Below are positions 1 through 27,616 of a DNA stretch of 29,465 nucleotides, piece after piece. Each line of letters begins with the position of its first letter. Position 1 is the first letter of the stretch. Origin of the DNA: Myxococcota bacterium (GTDB taxonomy: Bacteria; Myxococcota; UBA727; VGSZ01); assembly GCA_044349155.1 (NCBI GenBank), contig JBIKRQ010000029.1, positions 1 through 29,465 on the forward strand. The letters run 5' to 3'. The position numbers were made by a program, and so were the translations under genes. The notes beneath the pieces are model-generated. The model made no database searches. It was not told the DNA's origin and saw only the letters and a program-made list of their open reading frames with translations.

Positions 1-1213
1 GCGGTGCACTAGACGGTGCCAACGTTGGCGGTGGTGGCGGGGGGGCGGCAGCGGCAACCACCTTCGGTGCAGGTGCGGGTGCGGGTGCGGGTGCGGGTGC
101 GGGTGCGGCAGGTGCCGCCTTCGGCAACGGCGACGACGGTGCAGGTGTGGGCTTGCTCTTGTCGACGGCGCGACCGACGTAGGTGGGAAAGCGCGGCACG
201 CCGTCTTTGGTGAGTTCCTGGTAGCGGTAGGTGACGATGTCGCCGATCTGCGGTGGGTCTTCGCGCTCGGCGTCGGTGAAGCCCGTGCCGACGTTGAAAC
301 GCACGCCGCTGTCCATCATGCACACCAGCGCCCCCAGACGACCCTTGTGCTTGCCCTTGCCCGGCTCGTGGTCGATGACCTTCGCCTCGGCGTCGTGGAA
401 GGTCTTGACCTTCAGCAACGTCGAGCTGCGGCCTGACTCGTACTTGCTGCCAGGCTGACGCAGCATGAGCCCTTCACCGCCGAGGGCTTCAACGCGCGCA
501 AGCTCGGCACGCAGGTGGTCAGTACCGTTGCACACGATCTGCTCCAACGCGCGCGCGTACGGGTGTCGACCTTCGCCGAAGTGCTCCATCATGAAGGCGA
601 TGCGATCTTCGAATGGTGATTCGAGGTGGGGCGCGTCGAAGATGATGTAGCGCAGCTGCTTCCACTGCTCGCCCGCATCTTGTCGACGGACAATCGACAC
701 GCACTTTTGGAATTCCTGGCGCGCCAACCACAGCTCACCATCGAGCGGGTGCTTCGGCAGCGTCGAGGTAAACCACTCGGGCGCGTAAAACGCGTTGCCC
801 AACCGCGACATGAACCGCACGCCATCCCAATACGCGCGCACACCATCGAGCTTCTCGCTGAGCCACCAGCCGGTGAGGTCGACATCGCCTTCCCACTTGT
901 GGGCCAACAACACCGCGGGGCCGTCGTCGCCGTCGTCGTCACCAGCCGGCGTGCCCGCCGACGTCGACGTGGCCTTCTTCTTTGGCGCTGGCGACGGCGT
1001 GACGACCTCGCCAAACGCCGCGAGCCGTTCAGTTTCGGCTTCGAGGCCGCGATAGGCTTTGAGGTGCTTGCAGGTGCGGCGCTCGATGCCACCGCCGACG
1101 TTGCGCCACGCGGGGCACGAACACGAGTACACGCCGCCGACGTTTTTGAGTTCGTAGGGGTCTTTGGCCGAGCCCTTGACGTAGGCCACTTCTCCGTCGG
1201 CGATGTCTGGCAT
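1..1213 (-). CDS. ATP-dependent DNA ligase. N-terminal CxC..CxH (SWIM-like) zinc-finger module, C-terminal Pro/Ala-rich tail. The 3' end runs off the window start (partial).
   Basis: Minus-strand frame from ATG ~1213 (track coordinates) translates to MPDIADGEVAYVKG..YSCSCPAWRNVGGGIERRTCKHLKAY.. (CxC-X15-CxH). It continues with ..LTGWWLSEKLDGVRAYWDG.. (adenylation motif I KxDG), ..EGLMLRQPGSKYESGRSSTLLKVK.. (motifs IV/V) and an OB-like C-terminus ..GDIVTYRYQELTKDGVPRFPTYVGR... It ends in (PA)n encoded by the (GTGCGG)n repeat. It is absent from the ORF track only because no stop codon lies inside the window. Confidence 0.8.
   Translation of the reverse strand, partial: MPDIADGEVAYVKGSAKDPYELKNVGGVYSCSCPAWRNVGGGIERRTCKHLKAYRGLEAETERLAAFGEVVTPSPAPKKKATSTSAGTPAGDDDGDDGPAVLLAHKWEGDVDLTGWWLSEKLDGVRAYWDGVRFMSRLGNAFYAPEWFTSTLPKHPLDGELWLARQEFQKCVSIVRRQDAGEQWKQLRYIIFDAPHLESPFEDRIAFMMEHFGEGRHPYARALEQIVCNGTDHLRAELARVEALGGEGLMLRQPGSKYESGRSSTLLKVKTFHDAEAKVIDHEPGKGKHKGRLGALVCMMDSGVRFNVGTGFTDAEREDPPQIGDIVTYRYQELTKDGVPRFPTYVGRAVDKSKPTPAPSSPLPKAAPAAPAPAPAPAPAPAPKVVAAAAPPPPPPTLAPSSAP
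67..108. repeat. Hexanucleotide microsatellite (GTGCGG)x7 (one variant unit). It encodes (Pro-Ala)n in the ligase C-terminal tail.
   Basis: Direct reading gives gtgcag then gtgcgg x6. The minus-strand ligase frame gives APAPAPAPAPAP. Confidence 0.9.
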
Positions 1214-1337: not shown

Positions 1338-2498
1338 ATGGAGCGTGTGATGAAGAAGGTCGTGCTCGGCTTGGTCCTTGTGCTGGTCGTGGTTGCCGTC
1401 GCACTCGGCGGTTTGTGGTGGTCGGCGGTGAGCAGTGCACGCAAAGCCGTCGCCGAACTGCGCGAACAAAAGGACGAAGCGTTTCGCAGCATCGAAGCTC
1501 GCATCGTCGCCGACGAAGCACTGCTCGACCTGCCGTCGCTCGCCCTCACCGACGGGCCCGATGCTGGGCCGCTCTTGCTGAAACACATCCGCTTCGGCGA
1601 CGCGCAGAAGGCCCCGACGATCTCCGACGCGCTCGCCGAACGGCTCGCGCTGTGGACCGCCGTGATGAACGATGAGGAGCTCGCCTCCGTCGACCTGAGC
1701 TGGATGGCGCAGCTGCCCACCTACGGCTTTTGGGACCTCGAAGGTGCCGGCAGTCCGCTTGAGCATCGGCCGCTTGCGGTCTTCACCGAAGACCGACCCG
1801 TGTTCGCTGACCTCAACCGGATCGCCCACGCACGATTGCTGCAGGGCCTGCGAACCCGCACGACCAGCACCGCTGCCGCCGAAGTCCGCGCGCTTGCCCG
1901 ACTCGCGTTGTCGACGGAAAACATGGTCGGCGAGATGACTGCCATTGCCCTGCTCAAGAAGGAACAGCGCGCCTTCGAAGAAGCCAAAGCCATCGGCGAA
2001 GACACCACCGGCTGGACCCCGCTGTCGAGCGCCCAAACCGAGGCCCTCAAGCGCGTGTTGCTCGCTGCGCTGTCGCAGCACACGCTGTTGTCGTCGACGT
2101 CGATGACAGCGCACCGCTTCCCGGTGGGCACCTGTGCTGCGCTGAGCGAAGGCCTGGGCGGCGCTTTGTACTTCTCGAACTTTGCGCGCGACGAGTTTGC
2201 TCAGCGCTACGTCGAACTCGGCGATGCGTTGCGGACGAGCCCCTGCCGCTTGCGTCGTCTGCGCGCCGCGTGGGCAAATCCCTCCCCGACCACCGCCGTC
2301 GTGCTCAACTCGGTCTGCGTCGACGAGGACATGCAGGCAACCGGCGACTGCTCAGCTGACGCGGCACTCGGAGCTCCCGGTGTGCGCTCGTTTTTGACCA
2401 ACACGCTGTTGATGATTTCGACGCCAGACACCCTCAAGAGCTACACCTCAAGCGCGTCGCCGACGACGACACAGGCGCCGTCGGCGACTCCGCCCTGA
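1338..2498 (+). CDS. Hypothetical membrane-anchored protein (N-terminal TM helix, 386 aa).
   Basis: ORF MERVMKKVVLGLVLVLVVVAVALGGLWW... has a hydrophobic N-terminal anchor followed by a balanced, non-repetitive composition. It is divergent from the ligase (125-bp spacer). Its stop (2496-2498) directly abuts the MVP stop (2499-2501). No recognisable catalytic motif. Confidence 0.55.
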   Translation: MERVMKKVVLGLVLVLVVVAVALGGLWWSAVSSARKAVAELREQKDEAFRSIEARIVADEALLDLPSLALTDGPDAGPLLLKHIRFGDAQKAPTISDALAERLALWTAVMNDEELASVDLSWMAQLPTYGFWDLEGAGSPLEHRPLAVFTEDRPVFADLNRIAHARLLQGLRTRTTSTAAAEVRALARLALSTENMVGEMTAIALLKKEQRAFEEAKAIGEDTTGWTPLSSAQTEALKRVLLAALSQHTLLSSTSMTAHRFPVGTCAALSEGLGGALYFSNFARDEFAQRYVELGDALRTSPCRLRRLRAAWANPSPTTAVVLNSVCVDEDMQATGDCSADAALGAPGVRSFLTNTLLMISTPDTLKSYTSSASPTTTQAPSATPP

Positions 2499-4892
2499 CT
2501 ACTCGGCGTCGGCGCGCTTCAGCAGCGGAAAAGCGGGAGAAGGCGCAAAATCGAGAAACTTCTTCGCGGTTTCGAGAAGCCCGCGCCCTTCAACCGCCGC
2601 AAGCTCGCCGAAGTTTTCCGACAGCGAACTCAACAACTGCGCATCGCCCAACCGCTGCAACGACGCCGACAACTCCGGCGACACCGCCTGCGCCTGCCGC
2701 ACGCGGGCATCGGTGTGCGCCAACAAGAACGCGACCTCGAGGCGTTGGCGTTGCTCGAGCTCGTCGATCTCGACGGCGGCTTCCTTCGCCTTCGTCGCCA
2801 ACCGCAGCGCGCGCAGCGCACCGTCGGCCTGCACCGCCGACAACTCCTGCTCCGCCTGCATCGCCTGCACCGCGCGCTTGTGCTGCACACGACGACGCTC
2901 GAGCTCCCACGTGCCTTCTTCGAGCTCGGTCTCCAACTGCAGCGCCAACAGCTTCGTTTGCTGGTCCTGCTGCAACAACTGACGTGCCACTTCTTCGAGG
3001 CGTTGCTTGTCGCTCAGACTCGCCGTGGTCGAGGCCACGGTGACCGCGGCGCGCACGGTTTCCAGCTGTGAAGCATCGAGCAGATCGCGGACCCGCTCGT
3101 CGACGATTTCGCATTCGTGCACTTCGACATCGAACACGCACAGGCCGTTTTCGGCGAAGCGCAGACCTTTGCGTTCACCATCAGTGCGCTCGCCGAGCAC
3201 TGCATCGCGCACCAGGTCGACCACCTCGGCACGCAGCTGACGAATCGGCGTTTTTCGTGCGCGCCCCTTCACGATCGAGCCGGCGTGTTCGCACAACAGC
3301 TTCACGTAGTTGTCGACGACGAACCAGCGATCGGCATCGCCGTCGAACGACACGCGAAACGTCACGTGCACGCGCGCTTCCACCAGATCGGCCGACACCA
3401 CCTCGATGATGTCGCTGACCTGATTGCCCTGCACCTTCAGGTACACCGTGGGCAACAAGCGCTGGGTGGTCTTGGGCTTTCCCGTCGACAACGTGAGCGC
3501 TTCCAGGGTTTCGTCAAACGCGAGCAGCACCGTGTGCGGCCCCTGCACCACGCGCCGTTGTCCTCGACGGTCTTTGACGCACACGGCGTAGCCCGACCAC
3601 ACATCCACGCTCACCGCGCCGTCATACTTGCTGTCGAGCAGCAGCGTGGCGGGCTTGGTGAACGAGCGCGAGAAGGTATCGACACCGTCGTGGCTCGTGG
3701 CTTTTGTCGTCGTCGGCTGGACCCCCGACGCTGGGGCCACGACTGTTTTGGGCACCGTGCCGTTTCTGAGCGCGCGGTTGTGTTGCAGCGCTTCGTCGTT
3801 GCCCGGATACAGCAGCACGCTTTCGCGATCGGACAACGCGCGGCGCACCATGACCTCGTGGCGCGGGTCGGCGAGCAGCATGCGCGGGCCCACCACCAGG
3901 CGCACATCGCCGCTGGTTTTGTCGAGGACATAGCGGCCCTCGCCGGCGGGAATGGCCACCGCGTGGTGCTGCTCGGCACCGTTGCCCGGGCGGACCATCG
4001 CGTGCTCTTCGCGCGGGAAGTACAGGCGCGTTTGCGTGCCGGTGACGAAGAGCTCGTCGCCTTCGGCATGAGCAACGCCGTCGTCGTCGACGTACGGGGC
4101 GATCACCTTGATGTGCACCCCGGTGGTGGGGCTGAGCTCCAACGCGCGAAAAGCGCGCCGGCCGTTCACCTCGACGAAGCGCTCGTCGGGGGCGGGGAAC
4201 ACCACGGCCTCGCCGCGCACCATGCGCTTCTTGCCGTTTTCCTTGGCGAGCACGCAGTACTCGAGGCGCTGCAGGGTGACCGCATCACGCACGAAGCGCC
4301 CGTGCTCGTCGGCGACCACCTCCACACCATTGACGGGCATGTAGAAGCCAGCGCGATCGCCCTGCACCACAAACCGCTGGCCCACCTCAAACGTGAAGTC
4401 ATCGGCCACGACGTCGACAGCAAGGGCCAACGCGGCGTCCTTGTTCGCCAACGCTGCGTCGTAGACCTGCACGACCACGTACTGCGACGACGCCAGCCGG
4501 TGGCCCTCGACGACGCGCGCCATCTGCCCCGGCCACAGCGCAAAGCTCGTGGGCCCACGCACCACCACCTTCTTGCCGACGTGCAACTCCGCCAGCCCCG
4601 AGGCGACACCGACGCGTGGATGGCCGCCGTCCTGGGCGGGGTTCTTCAACACGAGGTACCAGTTCTCTGGTGCGGTCGCGAAGAGCTGAATCGCCGTGGA
4701 GAGTTCCATCGCGTGCACGAAGCGCCTGGCCTCGTCGTCGAAGATCACGGGTTGGTCGGTTTGCGCGAGCGACGTTTTGTTGGGGCCGACGTAGCAGTTG
4801 ATGTGGCCCTTGGTCGTGTCGAGCACCCAGGCGTATTCGTTGGGCGCGAGCACGAGTTCACGTTCGCGCGGGAGGCGGCGTTGCTCTTCCAT
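2499..4892 (-). CDS. mvp: Major vault protein (MVP) homologue: MVP repeat domains, SPFH/band-7-like shoulder, long coiled-coil cap helix (797 aa).
   Basis: Translation aligns by eye with eukaryotic MVP. MEEQRRLPRERELVLAPNEYAWVLDTTKGHINCYVGPNKT matches the MVP N-terminus (..YIHVLDQN..VEVGPKTY..). GEGRYVLDKTSGDVRLVVGPRMLLADPRHE matches human [28 protein letters not shown]. Repeated G[DE]E[WL]..G..Y.P units are present. The shoulder segment ..IVKGRARKTPIRQLRAEVVDLVRDAVLGERTDG..CVFDVEVHECEIVDERVRDLL.. is followed by an E/Q/L/A/R-rich cap helix. Start is at the internal Met (MEEQ..) with GAGG 7 nt upstream. The upstream 39 codons of the track ORF (MGQRARSRCRW..) look non-coding. Confidence 0.85.
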   Translation of the reverse strand: MEEQRRLPRERELVLAPNEYAWVLDTTKGHINCYVGPNKTSLAQTDQPVIFDDEARRFVHAMELSTAIQLFATAPENWYLVLKNPAQDGGHPRVGVASGLAELHVGKKVVVRGPTSFALWPGQMARVVEGHRLASSQYVVVQVYDAALANKDAALALAVDVVADDFTFEVGQRFVVQGDRAGFYMPVNGVEVVADEHGRFVRDAVTLQRLEYCVLAKENGKKRMVRGEAVVFPAPDERFVEVNGRRAFRALELSPTTGVHIKVIAPYVDDDGVAHAEGDELFVTGTQTRLYFPREEHAMVRPGNGAEQHHAVAIPAGEGRYVLDKTSGDVRLVVGPRMLLADPRHEVMVRRALSDRESVLLYPGNDEALQHNRALRNGTVPKTVVAPASGVQPTTTKATSHDGVDTFSRSFTKPATLLLDSKYDGAVSVDVWSGYAVCVKDRRGQRRVVQGPHTVLLAFDETLEALTLSTGKPKTTQRLLPTVYLKVQGNQVSDIIEVVSADLVEARVHVTFRVSFDGDADRWFVVDNYVKLLCEHAGSIVKGRARKTPIRQLRAEVVDLVRDAVLGERTDGERKGLRFAENGLCVFDVEVHECEIVDERVRDLLDASQLETVRAAVTVASTTASLSDKQRLEEVARQLLQQDQQTKLLALQLETELEEGTWELERRRVQHKRAVQAMQAEQELSAVQADGALRALRLATKAKEAAVEIDELEQRQRLEVAFLLAHTDARVRQAQAVSPELSASLQRLGDAQLLSSLSENFGELAAVEGRGLLETAKKFLDFAPSPAFPLLKRADAE

Positions 4893-5034
4893 GGTGGACC
4901 TCGGTGTGTGTTCGCCGACGTCAAAGCAGCCGCTGTGCCAACGGAGCTTGCGCATCACGACGCGCACACGCGCACCCCACCTGCATCGTGATCGAGCGCG
5001 TTGCCCCACGCCTGCACCGCGATGGTGCAGCGAG

Positions 5035-5526
5035 CTAGCCCCGGTGCTTCACGACGATCTCGTGCGCTGCCGCCGCTGCGACGTAGAACGCCCGAACGCG
5101 GTCAAAGACCGTGCGCAACAGGCCACATTCGACCATGTCGAGCACGCGATCGGGCTCGCCCCAGCCCTCGAAGGAATACACGGGCAGGCTGTCAGCACCC
5201 TTGAAGAGCCGTGGGTAGCGCGCGGCGAGGAGGCCCTCGAAGGAGACCTCGTACGTCAGGTACGCGGCGACGAACGACACCTCTTCCGTCGACACCACCA
5301 CGGGTGTGAGGGCCAGAGCGCCAGGACCAACGACCCACGACGCAGGCGGGTCACCTTCGGCGGAGGTGCCGGTCAGCAGCACGTGCAGGGCGTGCCACGC
5401 GCGGTGCGTGTTGATGGTGGCCGTGGCGTGCGTCTCGAGCCAGTCCAGGTCGACGCTCGGGCGTGACGCCGCGTCGGGGAGGTCGTGAGGCAAGCGGTGA
5501 AGCCACGTCCACATCGCCATCAGCAC
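5035..5526 (-). CDS. Hypothetical protein (163 aa), encoded between the SAHH-fold giant and MVP.
   Basis: ORF MLMAMWTWLHRLPHDLPD..YLTYEVSFEGLLAARYPRLFKGADSLPVYSFEGWGEPDRVLDMVECGLL.. has globular-looking composition with W/Y/F content. There is a 24-bp gap to the upstream gene stop, suggesting a translationally coupled operon. No known motif recognised. Confidence 0.5.
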   Translation of the reverse strand: MLMAMWTWLHRLPHDLPDAASRPSVDLDWLETHATATINTHRAWHALHVLLTGTSAEGDPPASWVVGPGALALTPVVVSTEEVSFVAAYLTYEVSFEGLLAARYPRLFKGADSLPVYSFEGWGEPDRVLDMVECGLLRTVFDRVRAFYVAAAAAHEIVVKHRG

Positions 5527-5550
5527 CGTCCGTAGCGTCGACGTCGTTGC

Positions 5551-8401
5551 TCAGTCGTAGGCGGGAACGGTGCCGCCGAGCGGTGACTCGACCCAGGCCT
5601 TCTTGCCGAGCGGCTCCGCACCACGGTGCTCGCGCTGGGCGCCAACGACGTAGTCGAGGCCGCGTTGGGCTTCGGCAATCAGCGCGTCGTCGGCCGACGG
5701 GTGATCGATGAAGGCCTGCAACACGTCGATGGCGTAGGCCGCGCGCTGCGGCTTCTCGTTGCCCAGCGCCCACAAGAACGAAGCACCGTCGTTCAACATC
5801 GTCGTCAACTGCTCAGCAGTCCACGTCGGGTTGTTGATGGCGTGGACGTTGGCCTGGTGCTCGAAGCGCAGCTTGCTGCCCGTACGGTTGTCGAGCATGT
5901 GCTGCTTGAAGCCCTCGGGGCAGCGTGGGTGTGCAAACAAGATCTCGCCGAGCTGTCGCGACACGAGATCGCGCTCGTACGTTGTGCCCGTCGGCATCGT
6001 CTTGTGCCCGCGGGCGGCCTCGTCGACGGTGGGCTCGCGCACACAGGTGGTAAACGCCCACTTGCCGTCGGGACGCTTGTCGACGCCCCAGATGCTTGCA
6101 GGTGGGACTTCGTCGATGCGTGAAGCGTTGATGCCGGTGTAGGCGCGCGTGCACCAGTCAACGAGGCGGTCTTCTTGATCGCCGCGCACGTCTTCGTTTT
6201 TCATCAAGCGGGCGACGTGGGCGAGGATGCCGAGGTCGAGCACCTTGTCGAGGGCGGCGTCGGAAATCTCCTTCGGCTGCGCGAGTGCCTCGAGCAGGAT
6301 CGGGTTCATCGGCTCCTTCTCGAGGAAGGTGTCGATGAGGGCTTCGGTGACGGCTGGCGGGGTCGCCGGCGACTTCGCAATCGCCAACCACGCGGCCTTG
6401 CTGCCAAAGAAGCTCAAGTCGCCGACGCGCAACTCGATGTCGGACGACGCCGCGCGCGACTGCGTGAGGCCTTCCATCTGCGCCTGCAACTCAAACTGCT
6501 GACCAGCGTCGAGCTCGACGAGACCCGCAGCTTTCGTGCGCGAGCGCACGGCTTTTTCCGCACCCAACAACATCAGCGCCATCGTGTGGTCGATGAGCTC
6601 AGGGGCGATCGAATTCACGTCCTGGAAGTTTGCGGGCAAGCCATCGGCCACGGCGGTGACGATGCGGTTGTCTTTCGTCCAGTAGTGCCACGTCTCCTGC
6701 TCGTTGACCTTGGCCGCAAGGATACGGCGCATCACGCCGTCGTCGCCGCGGGTGAGGTCAGCGAGGCCCAGCGTGTCGATCTCGACGCGCTTGCTGGAAG
6801 CACTCGCCACAAACACCGGCGAGCTCATCGCGAGGAAGTCCTTCATGTCGATGCTGCGATGACCGCTGCAGCCGACAACGAGGAACTTCTTGTTGAGCGC
6901 ATCGCCCTTGTCGGTGAGCACCGTGTAGCCAAGGCCTTCGAGTTCCTTCTTGCGCGCGGGCGTGACGTACGGATCGAAGAAGGTGACGCGCGCGCCATCG
7001 CCCTTGAAGCTGTCGGCGACACCGAGGCCGACTTTGCCGCCGCCAACGATGAGCACTTCTTTGCGCGTGGGCGTGGTGGCCACTTCGTCGAGCACGCGGC
7101 GCACACACTGCACCACCGCATCACCGACCTGGGCACTCTCGAAGCGCTTGCCGTAGCTGCCAGCCACGTTGGCGATCGCGAACGTGGGCTTCGGATCGAT
7201 CTGCGAAATCTCGGTGAGGCCGCGCGTGGTCTGCTCGACGACGCAGAACAGGTGCGCGTGCTCTTTGTACTTCGTCGCGATGTACTTGCTGGCGTAGCCA
7301 CCGTCGTCGAGCACGAGGATGGGCTGGCCGTTTGCTTGATGACGCTCAAAGGCGCGATCGACCGCGGCGCACACGTGCTGCCACATGCCGTCGATGTCGC
7401 CGCGCTCGGGCACGGTGACCTTCAGGCCCATGCCGCGCTCGAGCGAGAGCTTCACCGCGGGGTTCTTTTGGTACGGCACGCCGACGTACTCGGCGTTGTC
7501 CATGTTCATGCCGCCACGCGCGAGCTCGGCGCACAACGGCACCGCCTGCCCCAGCATGTGCTGCACCATGACGACGTTGTGGTTCTTGAACGGCTTGCTC
7601 GACTCGAGGCGCGTGCCCACCGAGTTCGACAGCGGCAGCGTGAGCGGGACTTCGCTGATGCTTTGCAGGGCCGCATCGAGCTTCTGCGTCCAGACGTCGG
7701 CTTCGGTGGGCAGCGAGGTCCAATCGTCGTCGACGACCTTGCGCTGCGGCGCCGTCTGCCACTGCGGCATGAAGTCGTAGACCTTCTGCAACGTCGCGAT
7801 GAAGGCACCATCGAGGAAGGGTGCGGCCTTGGCACCAAGCAGGTTTGAAGCCTTGAAGCTGCGCGCCACGTCGTCGAGCGACATCCCCGGCGAGTCGATG
7901 TTGCGCATCCAGCGCGTGAGCTGGGCCGCGAGCAGCCAGTTCGGCTCGTTGCCCATGCCCACTTTGAAGGGCGCGCCAGGGTTCACCGCCGCGGGCGCGC
8001 CGTGCAGGCCCGCGGCGCGCAGAAACTCCGACTCCGACAGCTGCGACACGTGCTTCGGGTACGCCTTCGAAAACGCCGTCTTCATGGGGTTGTGCGCACC
8101 GAACTGCGGGCTGGCCACGCTTGGTGAGGTCACCAACGACTTCATGACCTCCTGCGGCGGCAGTTCGAGTGTGGCCGGGGCAAGGACCGCTGCGAGCAGC
8201 GGTTTTGCCGTGGTGCTCAGCTTGATGTCGGGCACCTGGCGGGCGACGGCGTCGAAGGAGAAGCGATCGACGGGGCGAGCCGGCCGAGGACTCCGTCGTG
8301 CTGGTCGACTCGGTGGCCTTCGCTGCTGCCTTCGCAGCGGCCGCTTCGGCACTGCGGCGGAAGCGTTCTGCATCGGCAGGGCTCTGAAGTCGGATCGCCA
8401 T
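5551..8401 (-). CDS. Large (~950 aa) protein with a complete S-adenosyl-L-homocysteine hydrolase (AdoHcyase)-like fold embedded between ~270-aa N- and ~280-aa C-terminal extensions (paralogue 1). The frame is interrupted by a +1 nt frameshift near 8272-8275.
   Basis: KPFKNHNVVMVQHMLGQAVPLCAEL matches AdoHcyase [44 protein letters not shown] matches NMILDDGGDLTNLIHTKY. VVEQTTRGLTEI matches ISEETTTGVHNL. The Rossmann segment VLIVGGGKVGLGVADSFKGDGARVTFFDP matches [53 protein letters not shown] matches NIFVTTTGCIDIIL..HF.QMK. The plausible N-terminus MAIRLQSPADAERFRRSAEAAAAKAAAK..SAGSP (ATG 8401, frame of ORF 7346..8410) joins ..VDRFSFDAVARQVPDIK.. (frame of ORF 5551..8508) only if one G is removed from the G4 run at 8272-8275. 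The uninterrupted frame 5551..8508 begins with ~85 junk-like codons. Confidence 0.6.
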
Positions 8402-8523
8402 GGTGAACAAATAGCAGCCACGACGTCGATTTGGCTCGTCGCCGCCGGCCAGATCCCCGCCAGGCTGTTTCGAGAACGCTTCAGAGCTTTCTGCCGATAT
8501 ATCAACAACTTAGCGTGAAACCA

Positions 8524-9783
8524 TCAGTCGCACGTGACGTAGAGCGGCTCGCTCGGAAACGGGCAGTCGGCGCCGTAGACCTCCAGGCCGAAGGTGTCGA
8601 CGGTGCAATCGCTCACGTCGCTTGTGCGGCAATCGTAGGCGAAGCCCCACGTGGGCAGCTCGCGGCTGCGGTTCTCGCCGACACCGCTGGTGCCAAACAA
8701 CTCGGAACACCACAGCTCTTCGGGGTGTGACGAGATGCTGCCGGTGCACACCTGGTGGTAGGCGCCGTCGACTTCGACCTCGAGGAAACCGTCGCGCGCG
8801 TTTTCGCCCTCGACGAGCCGCCCCGCCCCCAACGCGAGGCAGACGTAGCCGTGCAAGCCCGGTTCGATTTCGGCGTTGTAGCAGGTGCCAGCACCCTCGG
8901 GTGACGTGCAGCTCTCGTCCTCTTGCGCCGAGTCGCACGAGCAACTGCCCGAGTAGCACTGCTGATCGGCACCACACTGCCGACCACACGCGCCGCAGTT
9001 GTCTTCGTCTTCGCCGAAGTCGACGCACGTATCGCCGCAGCGATCGAACTCGTGCGCGGAGGTTGAGACGTTGTCGGCGCACAAGCACGTGGGCTCGATC
9101 GAGTCGCGCGTGATCGGGTCTTCGTCGACGCAACGCAACTGTGACGGGCACGCAACATCGCAGCGGCCGCAGTGATCGTCGTCGACAAAGCTGTCGTCAA
9201 CGCAAACGTCACCGCAGCGCACCTCGTTGCACACACCAGCACACGCGGCGGGTCCCTCGCACGTCAACGTGACGGTGAGGTCTTGCAGGGTTTCGTGGCC
9301 CGCTTGATCGAAGAAGCGCGCGCGCAACGGACGCGACGCGCTCGCCGCGAAGTCGATGGCGCGGGTGGTGTTGACCTCGTCCCAGCCAAGGCGAAGCTCG
9401 TACGCACCCTCGGCAGCGGAGGTTTGAAATGCGCCGTACGTGGCGTTGGTGACGGGGTCGAGCAGCACGCCGCCGATCAGGTCGTCGATTCCATCGGGGT
9501 CGGTGACGACGGCAGAGATCACGATGGTCGTCGACGGCGTGAACGTGGTGGTGTTGGCCGACAACGTCAAAATCGTGGGGCACCCGGCATCGAGACACGC
9601 GCCAGGCGGCGGCACATTTTCGCCTTCGCCTTCGCCGCTTTCGCCTTCGCCTTCATTGCCGTCGTCGTCGTCGTCGTCGTTGTTGGATGCGGGACGTCGC
9701 CCCGTTGGCTCGTCTTCGGTCGCCGGCGCACACGACACCACACACGAGATCAGCACAAGGCCAGGCAGGACACGCATTCTCAA
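8524..9783 (-). CDS. Secreted lipoprotein: lipobox, poly-Asp/(Gly-Glu) acidic linker, Cys-rich CG.C..C repeats, C-terminal SRCR-like domain.
   Basis: MRMRVLPGLVLISCVVSC (signal peptide plus L-I-S-C / V-V-S-C lipobox), then NNDDDDDDGNEGEGESGEGEGE. Multiple ..CGRCDVACPSQLRC.. and ..CGACGRQCGADQQCYSGSC.. motifs follow. The terminal ~100 aa RLVEGENARDGFLEVEVDGAYHQVCTGS..EELWCSELFGTSG..WGFAYDCRTSDVSDCTVDTFGLEVYGADCPFPSEPLYVTCD fits the SRCR pattern (RLV.G...G.VEV...G.WG.VC...ak.vC..LG...W.ddv.C.G.E..L.dC....G...C.h.EDagV.C). Confidence 0.7.
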   Translation of the reverse strand: MRMRVLPGLVLISCVVSCAPATEDEPTGRRPASNNDDDDDDGNEGEGESGEGEGENVPPPGACLDAGCPTILTLSANTTTFTPSTTIVISAVVTDPDGIDDLIGGVLLDPVTNATYGAFQTSAAEGAYELRLGWDEVNTTRAIDFAASASRPLRARFFDQAGHETLQDLTVTLTCEGPAACAGVCNEVRCGDVCVDDSFVDDDHCGRCDVACPSQLRCVDEDPITRDSIEPTCLCADNVSTSAHEFDRCGDTCVDFGEDEDNCGACGRQCGADQQCYSGSCSCDSAQEDESCTSPEGAGTCYNAEIEPGLHGYVCLALGAGRLVEGENARDGFLEVEVDGAYHQVCTGSISSHPEELWCSELFGTSGVGENRSRELPTWGFAYDCRTSDVSDCTVDTFGLEVYGADCPFPSEPLYVTCD

Positions 9784-9876
9784 ACTCCCGCGATGGCCAC
9801 GTCGTGCGCACCGTAGCGTGAAATCATTTCATTTGGCGCAGATCTTCGTGGTGTTATCGCTGGCATTCCGTCGGAG

Positions 9877-12594
9877 ATGTTGAACTCCAACCTTGCGCTC
9901 ACGTCGACAGCACGGAAGTCTGTTGTCGTGACCAAGGCCTCTGCCGACTCTGTGCAGCCTGTCGACACCGGCGGTCAAACGCTGGTGGCGAAGTCGCGGC
10001 CCACCACCGAGGCGCCCAACCTCGACGGCGAAGCGGTGCGCACGATCATCGAGCTCGAAGCCGCGCGCCCCACGTTGTCAGCGCAGCCGACGTTCACCGC
10101 ACGCCCCACCATCACGGTGCGGCCCACGTTCACCGCGCGCTCAACGCGATCGCTTACCCCCGAGGTCGATGGCTCCGCCGAGCTGCAAAACGCTGGCACC
10201 ATCGTCGAGCTCGCAGCGGGGGCGATCACGTCGGTGGTCGCGTCGTCGGAAGGCATCGCTGCTCCTGCCGCGCGAGCCACGTCGCAGGTCCGCTACGACC
10301 TCGTTGGCGAGATCGGACGCGGCGGTGGTGGCGATGTCTTCGAGGTCAAAGACAACGACCTCAAGCGCCACGTTGCGCTCAAGCGCTTGCGCAAAGAGCA
10401 CATTGATCGCGGGCTGCTCGCGTTGTTTCTGCAAGAGGCACAGCTCACCGCACAGCTCGAACACCCGAACATTGTCCCCGTGCATGAGCTGGGTTGCACC
10501 GCCACGGGCGAGCCATTTTTCACGATGAAGCGTGTGATCGGCCAGACGTTGCACGACGTGCTGGTGGGCGTTGCTCGTCGAGAACCGGCGTTTGTGGCGC
10601 GCTTTTCACGCACGCGGTTGCTCGTGGTGTTTTTGGAAATCACCCGCGGTGTGGCGCACGCGCATGCCCGTGGTGTGGTGCACTGCGATCTCAAGCCCGC
10701 CAACATTCTCATCGGCAACCACGGCGAAACCCTCGTCGCGGATTGGGGGTTGGCCACGCCCGATCGCCTGACGCCCGAGCCCATTGTTGGTGGCGCGCAG
10801 CTCTCGACCGTTGAGTGGCCCGGCGAACTCATCGACATGGGCGTGAGCGGCACGTTGCATGCGTTCGCGCCGGAGCAGGCACAGCATCTGCCCTTCGATC
10901 GCCGCATCGACGTCTACGCCCTCGGCGTCATCCTGTATGAGCTGCTCACCGGCGAGCGCCCGTTTGCGTGGAAGAACCTCGCTGAAGCAGCAGCGCCGCG
11001 ATCGTTGCCCGTGCCGCCGCGCGTGCGTGCGCCGCACAAAGACATCTCCGACGAGCTCGAGGCCATCTGCCTCAAGTGCTTGCAGCCCGATCCCAACAAC
11101 CGCTACGGCGGCGCCGGAGCCCTCAGCCTGGCGATGGAGAACGCGCTCACGGGCTCACGTCGTCGACAACAGGCGCAGCACGTGACCAGCGAAGCGCAGG
11201 TGTATCTCGCCACCATGCGTACGCTGCAGGCGCAGCAACAGCAGGTGCAGCACGAGATCGCCGCCCACCTCGACGTGATCAAACCCTGGGACGACGAAGC
11301 GGTGAAGGCACCCTTGTGGGCGGCCGAGCAGCGGCAGCAGCAGTTGGAGTTCGCCGTCGACGAAGCGCTCGCGTCCACCCTCGACTGCTTCAATCAAGCC
11401 CTCGGCCTCGACCCCGGCTTCGTTGCTGCCGAAGACGCGTTGGCCGACCTGCACCTCGAGCTGTTTCTCGAAGCCGAAGCGCACGGCCGTCATCGGGATC
11501 AACAGTTCCACCGCCGCCTCGTCGAGCGCCACCACCGTGGTCGTCATGCCGCGGTGTTGGCGGGGCGCGGCATCGTCACGCTGCGGCCGCGCATCAACGG
11601 TGTCGACGCCGTGGAGGCGCGCATCAGCGGTGTGGTGCTCGTTGAAGAGGGCAAGCGCATCGTTGCGGGCGAGGCATTGCTGTTGCCTGATGGCGTCGTG
11701 CACGAGTTGTCGGTGCCGATGGGCAGTGCGCTGTTCACCATCACGCCACCAGCACACGAGCCGCCATTGGCCACCACGACGGTGCACGTCTACGTCGGCC
11801 GCTCCGGGCGCGTTGACCTCGACGTGAACCTGGTACCGCAAGCCGTACTCGTTGGTGGACACGCCGGCGGTGTGCACATTCCGGCGGGGCCGTTTCTCGC
11901 CGGTGGCGATGCCGAAGCACAAAACGCGGGCCCGCGTCGCGAGGTGGTGCTGGCCGACTTTGTCATCGCCAAAACGCCGGTCACGTGTGCTGAGTACCTG
12001 GTGTTCTTGAACGATGTGGCGCGCACCGATCTGGCCGCCGCACGTCGTCACGTGCCGCGCACCAAGCCCGAGGGCGGCGCGTTGTGGGAGCCCGACGAAC
12101 ACGGCGTGTACGCGCTGCCGACGGCCGACGCCGACGGCAATCCTGTCATCGCCGACGCTCCCGTGATGGGCGTGAGCTTCTTCGACGCCGAGGCCTACTG
12201 CGCGTGGAAGGCCCGCCTCGACGGCGTGCCCTGGCGTTTGCCGAGCGAAGACGAGTGGGAGAAAGCCGCGCGTGGCGTCGACGGCCGCTTCTTTCCGTGG
12301 GGCAACGGCTTCGATCCCACGTTCTGCAAAATGGCCACGTCACGTCCGGGGCGCCCACAACCCGAAGCGGTGATGAGCTACCCCGTCGACGTCAGCGTCT
12401 ATGGCGTCGCCGACACTGCTGGCGGCATTCGCGAGTGGTGCAACAGCTACTACGACGCCACCAAAGAGACGCGCACGCTGCGGGGCGGGGCCTGGTACTT
12501 CAACCCGAGCTTCTGCCGCACAGCGTTTCGTCACGGGTACCTGCCACACATCGTGTTCACGAACTTCGGCTTTCGCCTCGCCCGCGACGTGTAG
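9877..12594 (+). CDS. Eukaryotic-like Ser/Thr protein kinase fused to a C-terminal FGE-sulfatase (SUMF1/EgtB-type) domain.
   Basis: Kinase motifs: G-loop IGRGGGGDVFEV, VALKRL (beta3 Lys), catalytic loop HCDLKPANIL, DWGLA (DFG-equivalent), APEQ, DVYALGVILYELLTG. The C-terminal region ..ADAEAQNAGPRREV.., ..RGGAWYFNPSFCRTAFRHGYLPHIVFTNFGFRLARD matches the FGE-sulfatase signature (RGGSW...R.A.R......GFR). The ~130-aa N-terminal low-complexity leader precedes the kinase domain. Confidence 0.85.
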   Translation: MLNSNLALTSTARKSVVVTKASADSVQPVDTGGQTLVAKSRPTTEAPNLDGEAVRTIIELEAARPTLSAQPTFTARPTITVRPTFTARSTRSLTPEVDGSAELQNAGTIVELAAGAITSVVASSEGIAAPAARATSQVRYDLVGEIGRGGGGDVFEVKDNDLKRHVALKRLRKEHIDRGLLALFLQEAQLTAQLEHPNIVPVHELGCTATGEPFFTMKRVIGQTLHDVLVGVARREPAFVARFSRTRLLVVFLEITRGVAHAHARGVVHCDLKPANILIGNHGETLVADWGLATPDRLTPEPIVGGAQLSTVEWPGELIDMGVSGTLHAFAPEQAQHLPFDRRIDVYALGVILYELLTGERPFAWKNLAEAAAPRSLPVPPRVRAPHKDISDELEAICLKCLQPDPNNRYGGAGALSLAMENALTGSRRRQQAQHVTSEAQVYLATMRTLQAQQQQVQHEIAAHLDVIKPWDDEAVKAPLWAAEQRQQQLEFAVDEALASTLDCFNQALGLDPGFVAAEDALADLHLELFLEAEAHGRHRDQQFHRRLVERHHRGRHAAVLAGRGIVTLRPRINGVDAVEARISGVVLVEEGKRIVAGEALLLPDGVVHELSVPMGSALFTITPPAHEPPLATTTVHVYVGRSGRVDLDVNLVPQAVLVGGHAGGVHIPAGPFLAGGDAEAQNAGPRREVVLADFVIAKTPVTCAEYLVFLNDVARTDLAAARRHVPRTKPEGGALWEPDEHGVYALPTADADGNPVIADAPVMGVSFFDAEAYCAWKARLDGVPWRLPSEDEWEKAARGVDGRFFPWGNGFDPTFCKMATSRPGRPQPEAVMSYPVDVSVYGVADTAGGIREWCNSYYDATKETRTLRGGAWYFNPSFCRTAFRHGYLPHIVFTNFGFRLARDV

Positions 12595-13885: not shown

Positions 13886-16800
13886 TCACCCCAACATGAG
13901 CGGCGCATGCCGGAGCGACTCAAGCTCCACGGCATCTCCCGGGAGCGTGTAGTCGATGACGACGTGGAAGGGGCGCTCCGGATCGGGTCGATGAACGCCA
14001 CGAAACACCGCGTCGTGCGGCAGGCGCACCGCGCGAGCATCGCCACCTGGGACCAACGGCGTGAGCACCAGTGCGCCGTCTGCCGCCCGCCCGACGACCA
14101 GCGGCGTCTCGCTTGCCGGCAGCAGCTGCACGGCTTCCACTTCGACGACGGAGCGCGGCAGTCGGATCTGGGCAAAGTGGCGCCCGACGGTGGTGTCGTG
14201 CACGTCGTGGACAAAGAGGCGCGCTGGTGTGCGCTGCACCTCGACAACGACCTGCTCCGCAGCGCTGACGTACAGCGCTGGCCCTGTGCCCTTGCGTGTG
14301 AGCGTCTCGAGTTGCGCCGTGCCGGGAAACGAACGCTGAAGGGTGGAGCCCACCTCGACGACGATCGATGTCGCAGCGCCGACATCGCGCACAGCCACGC
14401 GGCGATCGAAAGGTTGCGCAGGTGTTGCGGTGAACGCGCTCGTGGCGCGCTCGATCATGGAAAACCACTTGCGTCCAGTACTCGCATCAACGCCGTCGAC
14501 GTACCACGCGTTTGCTTCGGGCTCGGTGAGTGCCACCAGCGACCGGGGCACCGATGGCAACGTCACCGTCAGCGATGCAGCGCCCACGACGTCGCCGCGG
14601 CTCGTGTCGACAGCGCGCACCTGGCCGTCGTCGTCGGCGAAGATGTACAAGCCGGGGCGCTCGCCGACCTGGTTCGGCGGCGGGCACACGCCACGAGGCA
14701 AGCGTGCAAGGTAGGCCATCCACTCGTCGTGCCGTGCGGCGCCAACGACGAGGTCGGGACGCTGTGCAGCTCCGCGCGGCGACGCAGCTGTGCGATCCAG
14801 AACGGGCGTCTGCGGTCCACCGCGGGCGTCCCACGTGTTCTCGGCGAGCGTGCCGAGTGCAGGATCGAGCTCGACGAGACCAGGTGCTGAGGCCGACACA
14901 TCTTGCACGACGGCGGCGAACAACAACGCGCGCGTCAGCGCGATGTTCTCGGCCGTGAGGTTCTCGTATCCGTCGCCGTGAAAGTTGGCGGGACGGCCTC
15001 GATTCAGAATGGTGATGCCCTCGCTGCGGTGGCTGTCGATCTGCACCGCATCGAATTCAATCGCTGCCGACGACCCGCTCATCAACGCACCATCGAAGTC
15101 CTTGAGCATGTCGCCGCGCAGCGAGGTGTGGCCGGTGCACGACAAGATGACGTCGACGTGGTCGCTGATGCGATCGACGGAGTCGTGGGCGACAAAGCCT
15201 GCGGTGGTGGCACGCGCACGTGCTTCGGCCTTGGTGTCGACGAGCTCGACGTCGAAGCCTGCTGCACGCAAGTGCTTCGCCGTGTTGATTCCAATGGTGC
15301 CAGCGCTCACGACGCCGACACGCGCCTGGTCCGACAAGCGGCTGGCCTGCGTTGACTCCAACAGCAGCGCCTCGGCGAGCGCCCAGCCAACAACGTCGCC
15401 TTCCCGCTGTTTTGGCGCCGACGAAGCAACAGCAACCGTGCGGTAGGCGATGGGCTGTTTCTTCAACTCGGTCAGGCCGCGCGTGGTCTGCTCAACAGCA
15501 TCGGTGAACGTGGGGTCGAAGAGCTGTTGCAAGGTGGTCGAAGACGCGCCGCTGTCGGGGACCGGCTTTTGTCCGGCGATGATCGTCTGCAACATGCCGC
15601 CGTCGTCGAGCAGCTTCCACCCGTTGGCTGGGGCGACCGCCGTGCGCACGACTTCGTTGAGAAAGCGGTGCACTTCGCCGATGCGGTGTTCCTCAAACCC
15701 ACGGGTGTTGCCGCCCGTATCGCTGCCCACCATCACGTTGACGCCGAGGGTGCGCAGATACGACGCGACGAGGGGATTCGACGCGTACGGTGTTCCAAGG
15801 ATGAACATCTGCGAAGGGTCCATGCCCTTTTCGATCATCGCCTCGATCATCGGCACGATCGTGGGAAACAGATGCTGCACAGCAACAAGGCCGCGGCCCG
15901 CCACGGCGTCGTGGGGCACCCGATCTTTGACGACGTCGAGGACCGCGAGCTGCTTCGGCACAAGCCCACTGTCGCGCACGAGCACATCGATCAGCGGCCG
16001 CGCCGTGTGCGCTGGCATCGACAGGCGCAGCTCTTCGATCACCCGCGAGGCAAACGTGTAGTTCGGGCGCGCAGGCGTACCGAGGGCAGCAGCATCGTTG
16101 AGCGAGCGGGCGATGGCAGTACCGACGGCGCCAAAGTCACGGCAGAATCGCGGCCAGTCGACCTGGTTTGTCGTCGACGAGGGATAGCGGGCGAGCAGTT
16201 GCACCAACGCTGCGGCCACGACAGCCGGATCGGCGTTCGAGGCGCCCTGGCGCACGAGGGGCGAAAGGGCTGCGCCAAGGCTCTGCTGACCACGCCGAAC
16301 CATGAAGCCGCCGACGCCATCGAGCGTGTGGTTCAGCAGGCCGGGCGCACCCGCAAGTTCACGGGCGGCGATCTGCAAGGCGCCACCGGCACCGTAGCCG
16401 AGCACCTCGAGCAATTTCGTCGACGTCACGCGCGTGCTGATGCCATCGGGGAGCGTTACAGCGGCAGCCGCCGACAACGACGCAGCGCCGGTGACGCGCG
16501 CAGCCTTCGCCGCGGTCGGCGCCTCAACCACATCGACGACGACAGCAGGTGTGCAGAGGGCCGCGAGCACGCGGTCGCACTCGCTCGATGGACACAAGCG
16601 GTCGATCTTTTCGCGCAGGGTGAGCTGCTGCTCGACCCAACGGTCCTGTTGTGTTGTCCAATGTCCCGACGTTGGTGGCGTCGGCAGTCGTTGCAACGTG
16701 CCAGCGGAGAACGCCTCCAGCGCATTCTTCAGCGCCTGGCCAACGACAACGCCTTCGGCGCCGAGCTCCTCGAGAACATCAACGGGGACTGGTTTGTTCG

Positions 16801-17143
16801 CATCGAAGTGAACAGCCCGCGCGAGCAACACGGCCAGCAGCGCAGCGCCGTCGCCGACGTTCGGTTCACCAGCAACAGCGGTGCGCGTCCGCAGCGCCAG
16901 ATCGAGTTTGCTCTCGCGGTGCTTGGTAAGCGCGTTGGCGACGAGCGCGCCCACCTCGGGGGCAGCGTCGAGCACGTCGAGCAGCTGGTGCATTGGCGGC
17001 GTGTGGGACAGGCCCCAGGGGCTGCTGGTGGCGCCAACCACCGGCGGGTCGCGGCTCAGGCCAGCACGCAAAATTCTCGCCTGGAAGTCGTTCGACGACG
17101 ACAACCACTGAGCGGGGATCACCTGCGCGCGAATGACGGGCAT
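13886..17143 (-). CDS. Large (~1085 aa) protein with an AdoHcyase-like (SAHH) fold core, paralogue 2 of the 5551..8401 gene.
   Basis: The same motif series as paralogue 1. DRVPHDAVAGRGLVAVQHLFPTIVPMIEAMIEKG (substrate-domain His). LGTPYASNPLVASYLRTLGVNVMV. WKLLDDGGMLQTIIAG (DDGG). AVEQTTRGLTELK. Rossmann ARVGVVSAGTIGINTAKHLRAAGFDVELVDT. VDVILSCTGHTSLRGDMLKDFDGALMSGSSAAIEFD. Start at MPVIRAQVIPAQW (ATG 17143); the 26 upstream codons of the track ORF look non-coding. Confidence 0.7.
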   Translation of the reverse strand: MPVIRAQVIPAQWLSSSNDFQARILRAGLSRDPPVVGATSSPWGLSHTPPMHQLLDVLDAAPEVGALVANALTKHRESKLDLALRTRTAVAGEPNVGDGAALLAVLLARAVHFDANKPVPVDVLEELGAEGVVVGQALKNALEAFSAGTLQRLPTPPTSGHWTTQQDRWVEQQLTLREKIDRLCPSSECDRVLAALCTPAVVVDVVEAPTAAKAARVTGAASLSAAAAVTLPDGISTRVTSTKLLEVLGYGAGGALQIAARELAGAPGLLNHTLDGVGGFMVRRGQQSLGAALSPLVRQGASNADPAVVAAALVQLLARYPSSTTNQVDWPRFCRDFGAVGTAIARSLNDAAALGTPARPNYTFASRVIEELRLSMPAHTARPLIDVLVRDSGLVPKQLAVLDVVKDRVPHDAVAGRGLVAVQHLFPTIVPMIEAMIEKGMDPSQMFILGTPYASNPLVASYLRTLGVNVMVGSDTGGNTRGFEEHRIGEVHRFLNEVVRTAVAPANGWKLLDDGGMLQTIIAGQKPVPDSGASSTTLQQLFDPTFTDAVEQTTRGLTELKKQPIAYRTVAVASSAPKQREGDVVGWALAEALLLESTQASRLSDQARVGVVSAGTIGINTAKHLRAAGFDVELVDTKAEARARATTAGFVAHDSVDRISDHVDVILSCTGHTSLRGDMLKDFDGALMSGSSAAIEFDAVQIDSHRSEGITILNRGRPANFHGDGYENLTAENIALTRALLFAAVVQDVSASAPGLVELDPALGTLAENTWDARGGPQTPVLDRTAASPRGAAQRPDLVVGAARHDEWMAYLARLPRGVCPPPNQVGERPGLYIFADDDGQVRAVDTSRGDVVGAASLTVTLPSVPRSLVALTEPEANAWYVDGVDASTGRKWFSMIERATSAFTATPAQPFDRRVAVRDVGAATSIVVEVGSTLQRSFPGTAQLETLTRKGTGPALYVSAAEQVVVEVQRTPARLFVHDVHDTTVGRHFAQIRLPRSVVEVEAVQLLPASETPLVVGRAADGALVLTPLVPGGDARAVRLPHDAVFRGVHRPDPERPFHVVIDYTLPGDAVELESLRHAPLMLG

Positions 17144-17258
17144 GTCGAGTTCTACTCTGTTCACGCGATGTGGGGGTGACATTTGCGGGGAAACTTCCCG
17201 CCGATCACCCCGTGAGTTCATGGATTTGTCGTGCCGACAACCCCATGAATATCAACAT

Positions 17259-24350: not shown

Positions 24351-24351
24351 C

Positions 24352-24630
24352 GAGGCTCACATTGATCGGCGGGGAAGTGTCCCCGCCCACCCCTCAAGCC
24401 ATTCGCCTCGGCGACAAAACCGCAAAGCCGGTTTTCTCTTCGAGGCTCACATTGATCGGCGGGGAAGTGTCCCCGCCCACCCCTCAAGCCATTCGCCTCG
24501 GCGACAAAACCGCAAAGCCGGTTTTCTCTTCGAGGCTCACATTGATCGGCGGGGAAGTGTCCCCGCCCACCCCTCAAGCCATTCGCCTCGGCGACAAAAC
24601 CGCAAAGCCGGTTTTCTCTTTGAGGCTCAG
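24352..24630. repeat. Three perfect head-to-tail copies of a 90-bp unit (24352-24441, 24442-24531, 24532-24621) plus a 9-bp partial fourth. Each unit carries a GC-rich hairpin and a terminator-like hairpin. Candidate structured-RNA array or redundant bidirectional terminators.
   Basis: Unit is gaggctcacattgatcGGCGGGGAagtgTCCCCGCCcacccctcaagccattcgcctcggcgacAAAACCGcaaagcCGGTTTTctcttc. It contains an 8-bp GC stem with 4-nt loop and a 7-bp stem with 6-nt loop followed by TTTTCTCTT. The array lies in the convergent intergenic space between the lysR stop (24350) and the patatin stop (24627). 90 is a multiple of 3, which explains the artefactual repetitive ORFs in the track. Confidence 0.9.
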
Positions 24631-27525: not shown

Positions 27526-27616
27526 GGCGTCGTCTATCACCTTTCAACGCACCGGCGTCGATGACAGGGCCGAGCACACGTGCTATAGGTCGCGCCCCCC
27601 CTTCAAGGAGAACCCC

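Follow-up and report, generated by a model that had tools for sequence, protein, structure and literature searches.

A 29,465-nt contig from an uncultured Myxococcota bacterium (JBIKRQ010000029.1, assembly GCA_044349155.1; the whole contig is referred to here as the window) carries a gene for a bacterial homolog of MVP, the major vault protein of eukaryotic vaults. The coding sequence occupies positions 2499 to 4892 of the reverse strand (ATG at 4892, stop codon at 2499 to 2501) and specifies 797 amino acids (aa). On the evidence of its sequence and predicted structure, the identity of the product as an MVP homolog is beyond reasonable doubt. An earlier sequence-only reading of this DNA had recognized the gene and placed it at the end of a four-gene operon, the products of which were proposed as cargo or partners of a vault-like cage; the comparisons reported below largely refute this second part. 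Overall, we consider it probable that the window encodes a native, full-length bacterial MVP, that the gene stands alone behind a sigma-54 type promoter-like element, and that its product would self-assemble into a cage.

Identity and domain organization of the 797-aa protein

Homology to MVP, which the sequence-only reading had drawn directly from the translation and proposed to verify with the vault profiles, was borne out. The Pfam MVP_shoulder model (PF11978) matched aa 490 to 598 with 64.4 bits against a cutoff of 25 (E = 1.2e-17), spanning positions 3 to 118 of the 118 in the profile, and Vault_3 scored 40.7 bits against a cutoff of 28.8 (E = 2.7e-10); Vault and Vault_2 gave sub-threshold matches nearer the N terminus. 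A phmmer search against all solved chains returned major vault proteins only, the best (rat/human) at 1.6e-21 over three aligned stretches, and a profile built from 26 bacterial relatives (alignment A1) reached solved MVP at 2.3e-35. In the AlphaFold2 (AF2) model, small serial beta domains (aa 10 to 482) are followed by an alpha/beta shoulder (490 to 597), an uninterrupted helix of 136 residues (599 to 734), and two short C-terminal helices (739 to 768 and 772 to 782), so that both the repeat beta-domains and the cap helix anticipated by the earlier reading are present in the predicted fold. When this model was compared with the PDB using Foldseek, the top 12 matches were human, rat, and rabbit vault chains (1.5e-32 to 8e-27, ~800 to 900 aligned columns, ~20% identity). 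These were followed by a murine R1-R7 crystal fragment (E = 2.7e-12) and, ranked lower, by the SPFH cages of HflK/C, prohibitin, flotillin, stomatin, and erlin (1e-6 to 1e-4). A search of viral folds (BFVD) yielded nothing but SPFH-type proteins.

The predicted domains run in the order known from eukaryotic MVP. Approximately seven beta-sandwich MVP repeats (aa 10 to 486, nucleotides [nt] 3435 to 4865, reverse strand) were delimited by DSSP on the AF2 model, Foldseek, and Vault_3, and the array includes a helical insert and a disordered linker at aa 353 to 425. The SPFH-type shoulder domain (aa 487 to 598, nt 3099 to 3434, reverse strand) was assigned from PF11978 and Foldseek, and the cap-helix domain (aa 599 to 734, nt 2688 to 3098, reverse strand) is a continuous predicted helix according to DSSP, with a sequence alignment to the cap helix of rat MVP that extends as far as residue 788. 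Sequence alignments to eukaryotic MVP end at about aa 738 to 740. Conservation of the last 60 aa is restricted to bacteria; this segment (aa 736 to 797, nt 2502 to 2687, reverse strand) comprises the bacteria-specific C-terminal helices with the motif ENFGELAAVEGRGLLETAKKFLDF, defined by near-invariant columns of the A1 consensus. At the opposite end, the N terminus MEE..RERELVLAPNEY agrees with the consensus of the family, in support of ATG 4892 as the start codon. R1 (aa 10 to 62), the domain that in eukaryotes forms the waist contact between half-vaults, is the best conserved segment of the bacterial family, with a mean top-residue frequency of 0.84; the C-terminal helices reach 0.75. The product is a native, soluble, cytoplasmic protein. 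No signal peptide, membrane segment, or amphipathic N terminus was found in it (maximum Kyte-Doolittle hydropathy [KD], KD(19), 1.26), and the GC content of its gene (0.655; 0.836 at third codon positions [GC3]) is like that of the neighboring genes.

A G-x-P-K loop at aa 471 to 474 (nt ~3471 to 3482) aligns with human MVP G503 to K506, with K472, P473, and K474 opposite human R504, P505, and K506; P473 and K474 are invariant in the 26 bacterial MVPs. In the human protein, G503 to K506 lie in a "keyhole loop" that contacts the diphosphate of NAD+/ADP-ribose (PMC12280208). Conservation of the entire human pocket was considered and rejected: only the loop is kept, and the equivalents of human R507, P508, H509, R511, W545, P565, and K573 differ. 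For this reason, nucleotide binding by the bacterial protein is not claimed here.

The SPFH matches bear on the alternative that survives best, namely, an MVP-like fold that does not close into a vault and forms instead an open, SPFH-style half-cage or a scaffold on the cytoplasmic membrane, or acts as a nucleotide-binding sequestering protein. Gliding- or envelope-type functions would be examples, or nucleotide sequestering, as proposed in a 2019 preprint (10.1101/872010), which also correlates bacterial MVP with gliding taxa. The shoulder and the long cap-bundling helix that follows it do resemble membrane SPFH cages (stomatin, prohibitin, flotillin, HflK/C) in the Foldseek comparison, eukaryotic vaults have recently been seen bound to membranes (PMC13100048), and the loop that aligns with the human NAD+ keyhole is invariant at P473 and K474. 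SPFH proteins, however, are membrane anchored and devoid of MVP repeats, whereas the window protein has neither an anchor nor an amphipathic N terminus and carries ~480 residues of repeats on the N-terminal side of its SPFH domain, as in vaults. Moreover, its best conserved part is R1, the eukaryotic vault waist domain, and most other residues of the NAD+ pocket are unconserved. We therefore regard an open scaffold or sequestering protein as unlikely.

Transcription and gene neighborhood of the MVP gene

The 50 nt preceding the MVP start codon are conserved between the window and a sister contig (L003), the MVP of which is 93% identical. They hold a GAGG ribosome-binding site (4899 to 4902, 7 nt before the ATG) and a sigma-54 type -24/-12 promoter-like element, TGGCACAGCGGCTGCT (4925 to 4940, reverse strand), that matches the consensus TGGCAC-N5-TTGCW (GG-N10-GC core) at 10 of 11 positions, starting at -48 from the ATG and ending 32 nt before it. 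No other reverse-strand sequence in the whole window scored 9 or more. An equivalent element was found in 17 of the 18 testable loci with an MVP at least 49% identical, at -35 to -101 and mostly at -35 to -70. After dereplication, it was present at 8/11 or more matches in 12 of 13 loci, against 0.99 expected from the same contigs, and at 9/11 or more in 10 of 13, against 0.18 expected. The element is absent from the distant MVP loci, many of which are AT rich. Myxobacteria make extensive use of sigma-54 and NtrC-like activators. In one MVP subclade (L004/L005, positions 3472 to 4911, and L008, L009, and L011), a gene for an enhancer-binding protein with FHA, sigma-54-activator, and HTH_8 domains lies together with a Ser/Thr kinase gene 5 to 7 kb upstream of MVP. 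The MVP gene of that subclade has the -24/-12 element too, and the enhancer-binding protein is a candidate regulator.

Other transcription signals were less telling. A sigma-70 promoter scan of positions 2300 to 10000 gave 0 promoters and intrinsic terminators at the level of shuffled sequence, and was uninformative. A hairpin without a U tract, CTGCACC-atcgc-GGTGCAG (5012 to 5030, reverse strand), was read from the sequence 4 nt after the stop codon of the upstream gene and was not called by the terminator scan.

The open reading frame (ORF) listing confirms the basis of the operon proposal, in that four genes share the reverse strand between positions 2499 and 9783. Upstream of MVP lie a 163-aa DUF1877 (YfbM-like) gene (5035 to 5526), a giant with an SAHH-like fold (5551 to 8373, 940 aa from its ATG), and a 419-aa cysteine-rich lipoprotein gene (8524 to 9783). 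The gaps measure 142 nt before MVP, 24 nt before the DUF1877 gene, and 15 to 288 nt before the giant, the last varying with the start chosen for it. The coordinates of the earlier reading were correct except for the giant's start at 8401, which does not share a reading frame with the stop at 5551 (2851 nt). Starts in frame are ATG 8373, TTG 8508 (985 aa), and 8235, as called by the pipeline (894 aa); the true one is uncertain. The set thus has the single strand and short gaps of an operon; its gene order is not conserved elsewhere, and a promoter-like element lies within it.

The lack of conservation emerged from 87 other MVP loci with flanks of up to 10 kb, 80 of them recovered from a metagenome scan with alignment A1. 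By tblastn, the DUF1877 gene occurred in 0 of the 87, and the giant, the lipoprotein, and orf386, the convergent gene downstream of MVP, were each found only in the sister contig L003. In that contig, an opposite-strand Abhydrolase_2 gene takes the place of DUF1877, after the giant's stop codon and before the upstream region of MVP, the flanks being otherwise collinear. The DUF1877 gene is hence a strain-variable insert and not an MVP partner. Its product, listed as an unknown in the sequence-only reading, was identified by Pfam (PF08974, E = 2.3e-6) and had no solved-structure relative by sequence search.

De novo clustering of all flank ORFs across 27 MVP subclades (60% identity) likewise revealed no neighbor family common to more than two subclades except Ser/Thr kinases, which are numerous and promiscuous at these loci and vary in distance and strand. 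The sole visible synteny block, consisting of genes for a FliG-like protein, a 645-aa DNA ligase, a KaiC-like ATPase, and an FHA-sigma54 activator, is limited to a single subclade. Where genes were called, those beside MVP typically run on the other strand: this is so on both sides in L003, L004, and L005 and on the downstream side in L006 and L007.

Two further candidates for a recurrent neighbor were examined and rejected. A gene for an ATP-dependent DNA ligase, truncated close to the end of the contig, lies in the window ~1.3 kb downstream of MVP (131 to 1213, reverse strand), and its L003 counterpart (8767 to 10185) has DNA_ligase_A_M, OB_2, and WGR domains. The 645-aa ligase upstream of MVP in the L004 subclade is a different protein: the window/L003 and L004 ligases did not match each other at 1e-6, each being confined to one subclade, and the occurrence of a ligase near MVP in both groups is probably a coincidence. 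A NAPRTase gene near MVP in L004 is similarly confined to its subclade.

Bacterial MVP genes are, then, without a conserved neighbor, an outcome that the sequence-only reading had itself listed as grounds for refutation. This disposes of much of the proposal that a vault-like cage has the SAHH-like giant, the 163-aa protein, or both as its cargo or partners, paralleling vPARP and TEP1. The idea drew on the common strand and gaps of 24 to ~150 nt, on an NAD-type Rossmann motif inside the giant's SAHH fold, on the binding of NAD+/ADP-ribose by the human MVP shoulder and the NADase activity of TEP1 (PMC12280208; 10.64898/2026.05.01.722283), and on the retention of the giant-MVP adjacency in L003. 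That adjacency, however, was found only with an MVP 93% identical, a distance at which synteny is hardly informative, and neither the 86 other MVP loci nor 5 other giant loci show it, so that the proposal is contradicted from the MVP side and from the giant side. Even in L003 the middle gene is replaced by one on the opposite strand, MVP has its own conserved promoter element, and the families differ in size, with 44 clusters for the giant against more than 3,100 for MVP. We accordingly hold a four-gene operon with vault cargo to be very improbable; the three genes upstream of MVP are bystanders, adjacent by chance of local gene order.

The components that accompany MVP in eukaryotic vaults were also sought in the window, that is, in this 29-kb contig. 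The screened ORFs contained no Pfam domain of the vPARP/PARP, TEP1/TROVE, or NACHT/WD40 kind, and the contig gave no Rfam match at gathering thresholds, to vault RNA or otherwise.

That the gene was recently transferred from a eukaryote, or that the assembly is contaminated with eukaryotic DNA, can be practically dismissed: MVP is best known from eukaryotes and a eukaryote-to-cyanobacteria transfer has been suggested for cyanobacterial MVPs (PMC3762200), but the window protein is only ~20% identical to eukaryotic MVP (Foldseek) and has hundreds of bacterial relatives at 36 to 93% identity, its gene equals the flanking bacterial genes in GC and GC3 and is preceded by a sigma-54 element of bacterial type and a Shine-Dalgarno site, and the same gene with its flanks has been assembled independently from several samples.

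Under the interpretation that we favor, a native MVP encoded by a stand-alone sigma-54-type gene, the promoter-like element and the neighborhood data together suggest that MVP in this clade would be transcribed as a unit of its own, which an enhancer-binding protein would activate via sigma-54. The soluble cytoplasmic protein would self-assemble as eukaryotic MVP and SPFH cages do, its repeats and shoulders packing side by side and its cap helices bundling into a closed cap, with R1 as the candidate for the waist contact between the halves. A vault-like particle would result, and it would probably fall short of the eukaryotic vault in length because the model suggests about seven repeats and not nine.

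Several points weigh against this interpretation. The argument for cage assembly is one from homology. The AF2 monomer model has medium confidence (pLDDT 73, pTM 0.44), and the repeat number, taken from DSSP of that model, is approximate. The C terminus does not align with the eukaryotic cap ring, and sequence conservation within the bacterial family is lowest in the cap helix (0.46); the conservation pattern fits a conserved N-terminal interface combined with a composition-driven coiled coil, and is no proof of a closed particle. As for transcription, the sigma-54 element was recognized by its match to the consensus, and transcripts of the upstream genes may run on into MVP because the gaps are of 24 to 150 nt and the hairpin is devoid of a U tract. 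Finally, only ~10 kb per side was covered at each locus, and unlinked partners would be missed.

The SAHH-like giant and the remainder of the contig

The SAHH fold that the sequence-only reading had attributed to the giant was confirmed as a fold, by Foldseek matches to SAHH at 1e-13 over ~420 columns. The NCBIfam ahcY model (TIGR00936) matched at 7.5e-18 with 64.5 bits, far below its equivalog cutoff of 497.6, and the giant is not a housekeeping SAHH. Its core retains the two-domain organization and the motifs DDGG(Y), E-Q-T-T-R-G (VEQTTRGLTE; E-x-TT-x-G in SAHH), and GxGKVG (GxGxxG) and, unlike SAHH, is extended at both ends, by ~260 aa at the N terminus and ~300 aa at the C terminus. In place of the SAHH motif GHFDNEID, alignment by eye gives S-S-K-x-V-E-I-D. 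The family comprises 44 clusters of proteins of ~950 to 1100 aa, and all clusters with a taxon name are Myxococcota.

Five divergent giant loci (74, 50, 48, 43, and 38% identity) had no MVP within 10 kb. In three of the five, the giant adjoins a gene for a Ser/Thr kinase fused to an FGE-sulfatase domain, found in the window at 9877 to 12594 on the forward strand (Pfam); the orthologs in L090 and L091 are 68% and 54% identical, and the third case is L093. Because three of these loci carry the kinase-FGE gene and none carries MVP, the recurrent neighbor of the giant is the kinase. The giant thus belongs with this divergently transcribed gene, and the pair looks like an uncharacterized enzyme module linked to kinase signaling. 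FHA-domain genes lie nearby in three giant loci, an adenosine deaminase gene is directly upstream of the giant in L094, and a second giant paralog, 25% identical, is encoded on the far side of the kinase-FGE gene in the window (13886 to 17221, reverse strand). PADLOC and PHROGs gave no match for MVP, the DUF1877 protein, or the giant, and a link of these three to defense systems or phages is unsupported.

The lipoprotein upstream of the giant begins with an N-terminal lipobox (LISC/VVSC) and scores as an MXAN_6577-like / Stig1-like cysteine-rich protein. The MXAN_6577-like family takes its name from a Myxococcus gene. The SRCR label given to this protein in the sequence-only reading found no Pfam support, even at E <= 10; the sole hint, of a possible SRCR-like C terminus, is a weak phmmer match to a neurotrypsin SRCR domain (6h8m, E = 0.055). 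No relationship was detectable between the 419-aa protein and a 399-aa cysteine-rich protein. On the other side of MVP, the 386-aa orf386 (1338 to 2498, forward strand) abuts the MVP stop codon and encodes a membrane-anchored protein with a hydrophobic N-terminal helix (KD 3.09).

Two distant features had been linked to MVP by analogy with eukaryotic vaults. The tandem array of ~90-nt repeats is real (24351 to 24629; 3.1 copies, 99% matches), but it belongs to no Rfam family, vault RNA included (no match at E <= 1 on the array), and nothing ties it to MVP, from which it is 19.5 kb away. It fills the gap between convergent LysR (ending at 24350) and patatin-like (ending at 24627) genes, and each 90-nt unit has a stable fold (-35.2 kcal/mol, z = -3.3), with a terminator-like hairpin and then a U run at its end. 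The supposed vWA protein 20 kb away has merely a sub-threshold ivWA match, 22 bits against a cutoff of 35. Its gene (26077 to 27540, reverse strand) adjoins that of the patatin-like phospholipase (24627 to 26036, reverse strand), which matches PADLOC "Effector phospholipase" models at 3e-16, and the two could be a defense-type pair.

Elsewhere in the window, genes for an RtcB RNA ligase (Pfam, 1.5e-125) and for a DabA/DabB-type inorganic-carbon transporter pair lie in a region on the reverse strand (18106 to 19353 and 19442 to 23394); they appear ordinary and show no connection to MVP. Hexanucleotide tandem repeats, (GGTGCG)x7 at 66 to 108, (GAAGGC)x11 at 27698 to 27761, and (CGAAGG)x15 at 28228 to 28318, probably encode low-complexity stretches.

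Place within the MVP family and significance

The sequence-only reading regarded bacterial MVPs as rare, which understates the family considerably. Among 8,000 scored candidates, it forms at least 3,134 clusters at 90% identity, and an exhaustive search gave 566 representatives at 50% identity with E <= 1e-30. The exact window sequence is present in NCBI, JGI, and Logan, under the name "major vault protein" in JGI. Daly et al. described MVP homologs in 2013 in Corallococcus, Plesiocystis (two copies), Microscilla, Saprospira, Flexibacter, and Herpetosiphon, with ~25% identity to eukaryotic MVP and a predicted ability to fold and dock like it (PMC3762200). In two preprints, homologs from Myxococcales, Cytophagales, and Oscillatoriales were analyzed in 2019 (Sokolskyi; 10.1101/872010) and phage copies of MVP were reported in 2023 (10.1101/2023.11.10.566534). 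These reports and the JGI name of the exact protein weaken the novelty of the present one, which is an uncultured new member of an already described bacterial MVP family (Myxococcota/Bacteroidota-type branch). The description of bacterial MVPs as functionally uncharacterized stands, as our literature search found no experimental paper on any of them.

The window protein has the same order of MVP repeats, band-7/SPFH-like shoulder, and long coiled-coil helix as bacterial MVPs already described (PMC3762200; 10.1101/872010), such as Plesiocystis pacifica A6FXM1/A6FXE2, Corallococcus coralloides H8MNI3, and Enhygromyxa salina A0A0C2D5V5. It shares with them a home in Myxococcota and the status of an experimentally uncharacterized protein, and differs in coming from an uncultured Myxococcota contig. 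Neither PMC3762200 nor the available part of 10.1101/872010 mentions the genomic context of MVP, its lack of a conserved neighbor, or the sigma-54 element. With eukaryotic MVP (PDB 4V60, 4HL8, 7PKZ, 9BW5, and 9MXV) it has in common the domain order and the fold over its whole length (Foldseek, 1e-32); R9, the shoulder, and the cap-helix region align in sequence, and the R1 motif is recognizable. In contrast to the eukaryotic protein, it has about seven repeats in place of nine, a bacteria-specific C terminus in place of the cap ring, an NAD+ pocket that is conserved only in part, and a gene with a bacterial sigma-54 type element. No vPARP, TEP1, or vault RNA was detected in the window, and assembly into a 78-mer is, for the bacterial protein, hypothetical.

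The function of vaults has been an open question since 1986, and a bacterial MVP, if cage forming, would offer a simpler system in which to address it. Since the existence of bacterial MVPs is already published and the source here is uncultured, the window by itself adds little, and because bacterial MVP genes have no conserved neighbor, the cargo cannot be guessed from gene context. Besides that absence, the analysis adds the conserved sigma-54 type promoter element in this clade, a concrete and testable regulatory lead, and, as a separate lead, the small family of SAHH-like giants that recurs beside a kinase-FGE gene. More tentatively, and with somewhat less than even expectation on our part, it may be that Myxococcota MVPs build true cytoplasmic vault-like nanocompartments, produced on demand via sigma-54 (e.g., under stress or during development) and representing an ancestral, cargo-independent form of the vault shell. 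If so, these nanocompartments would provide a bacterial model for vault function.

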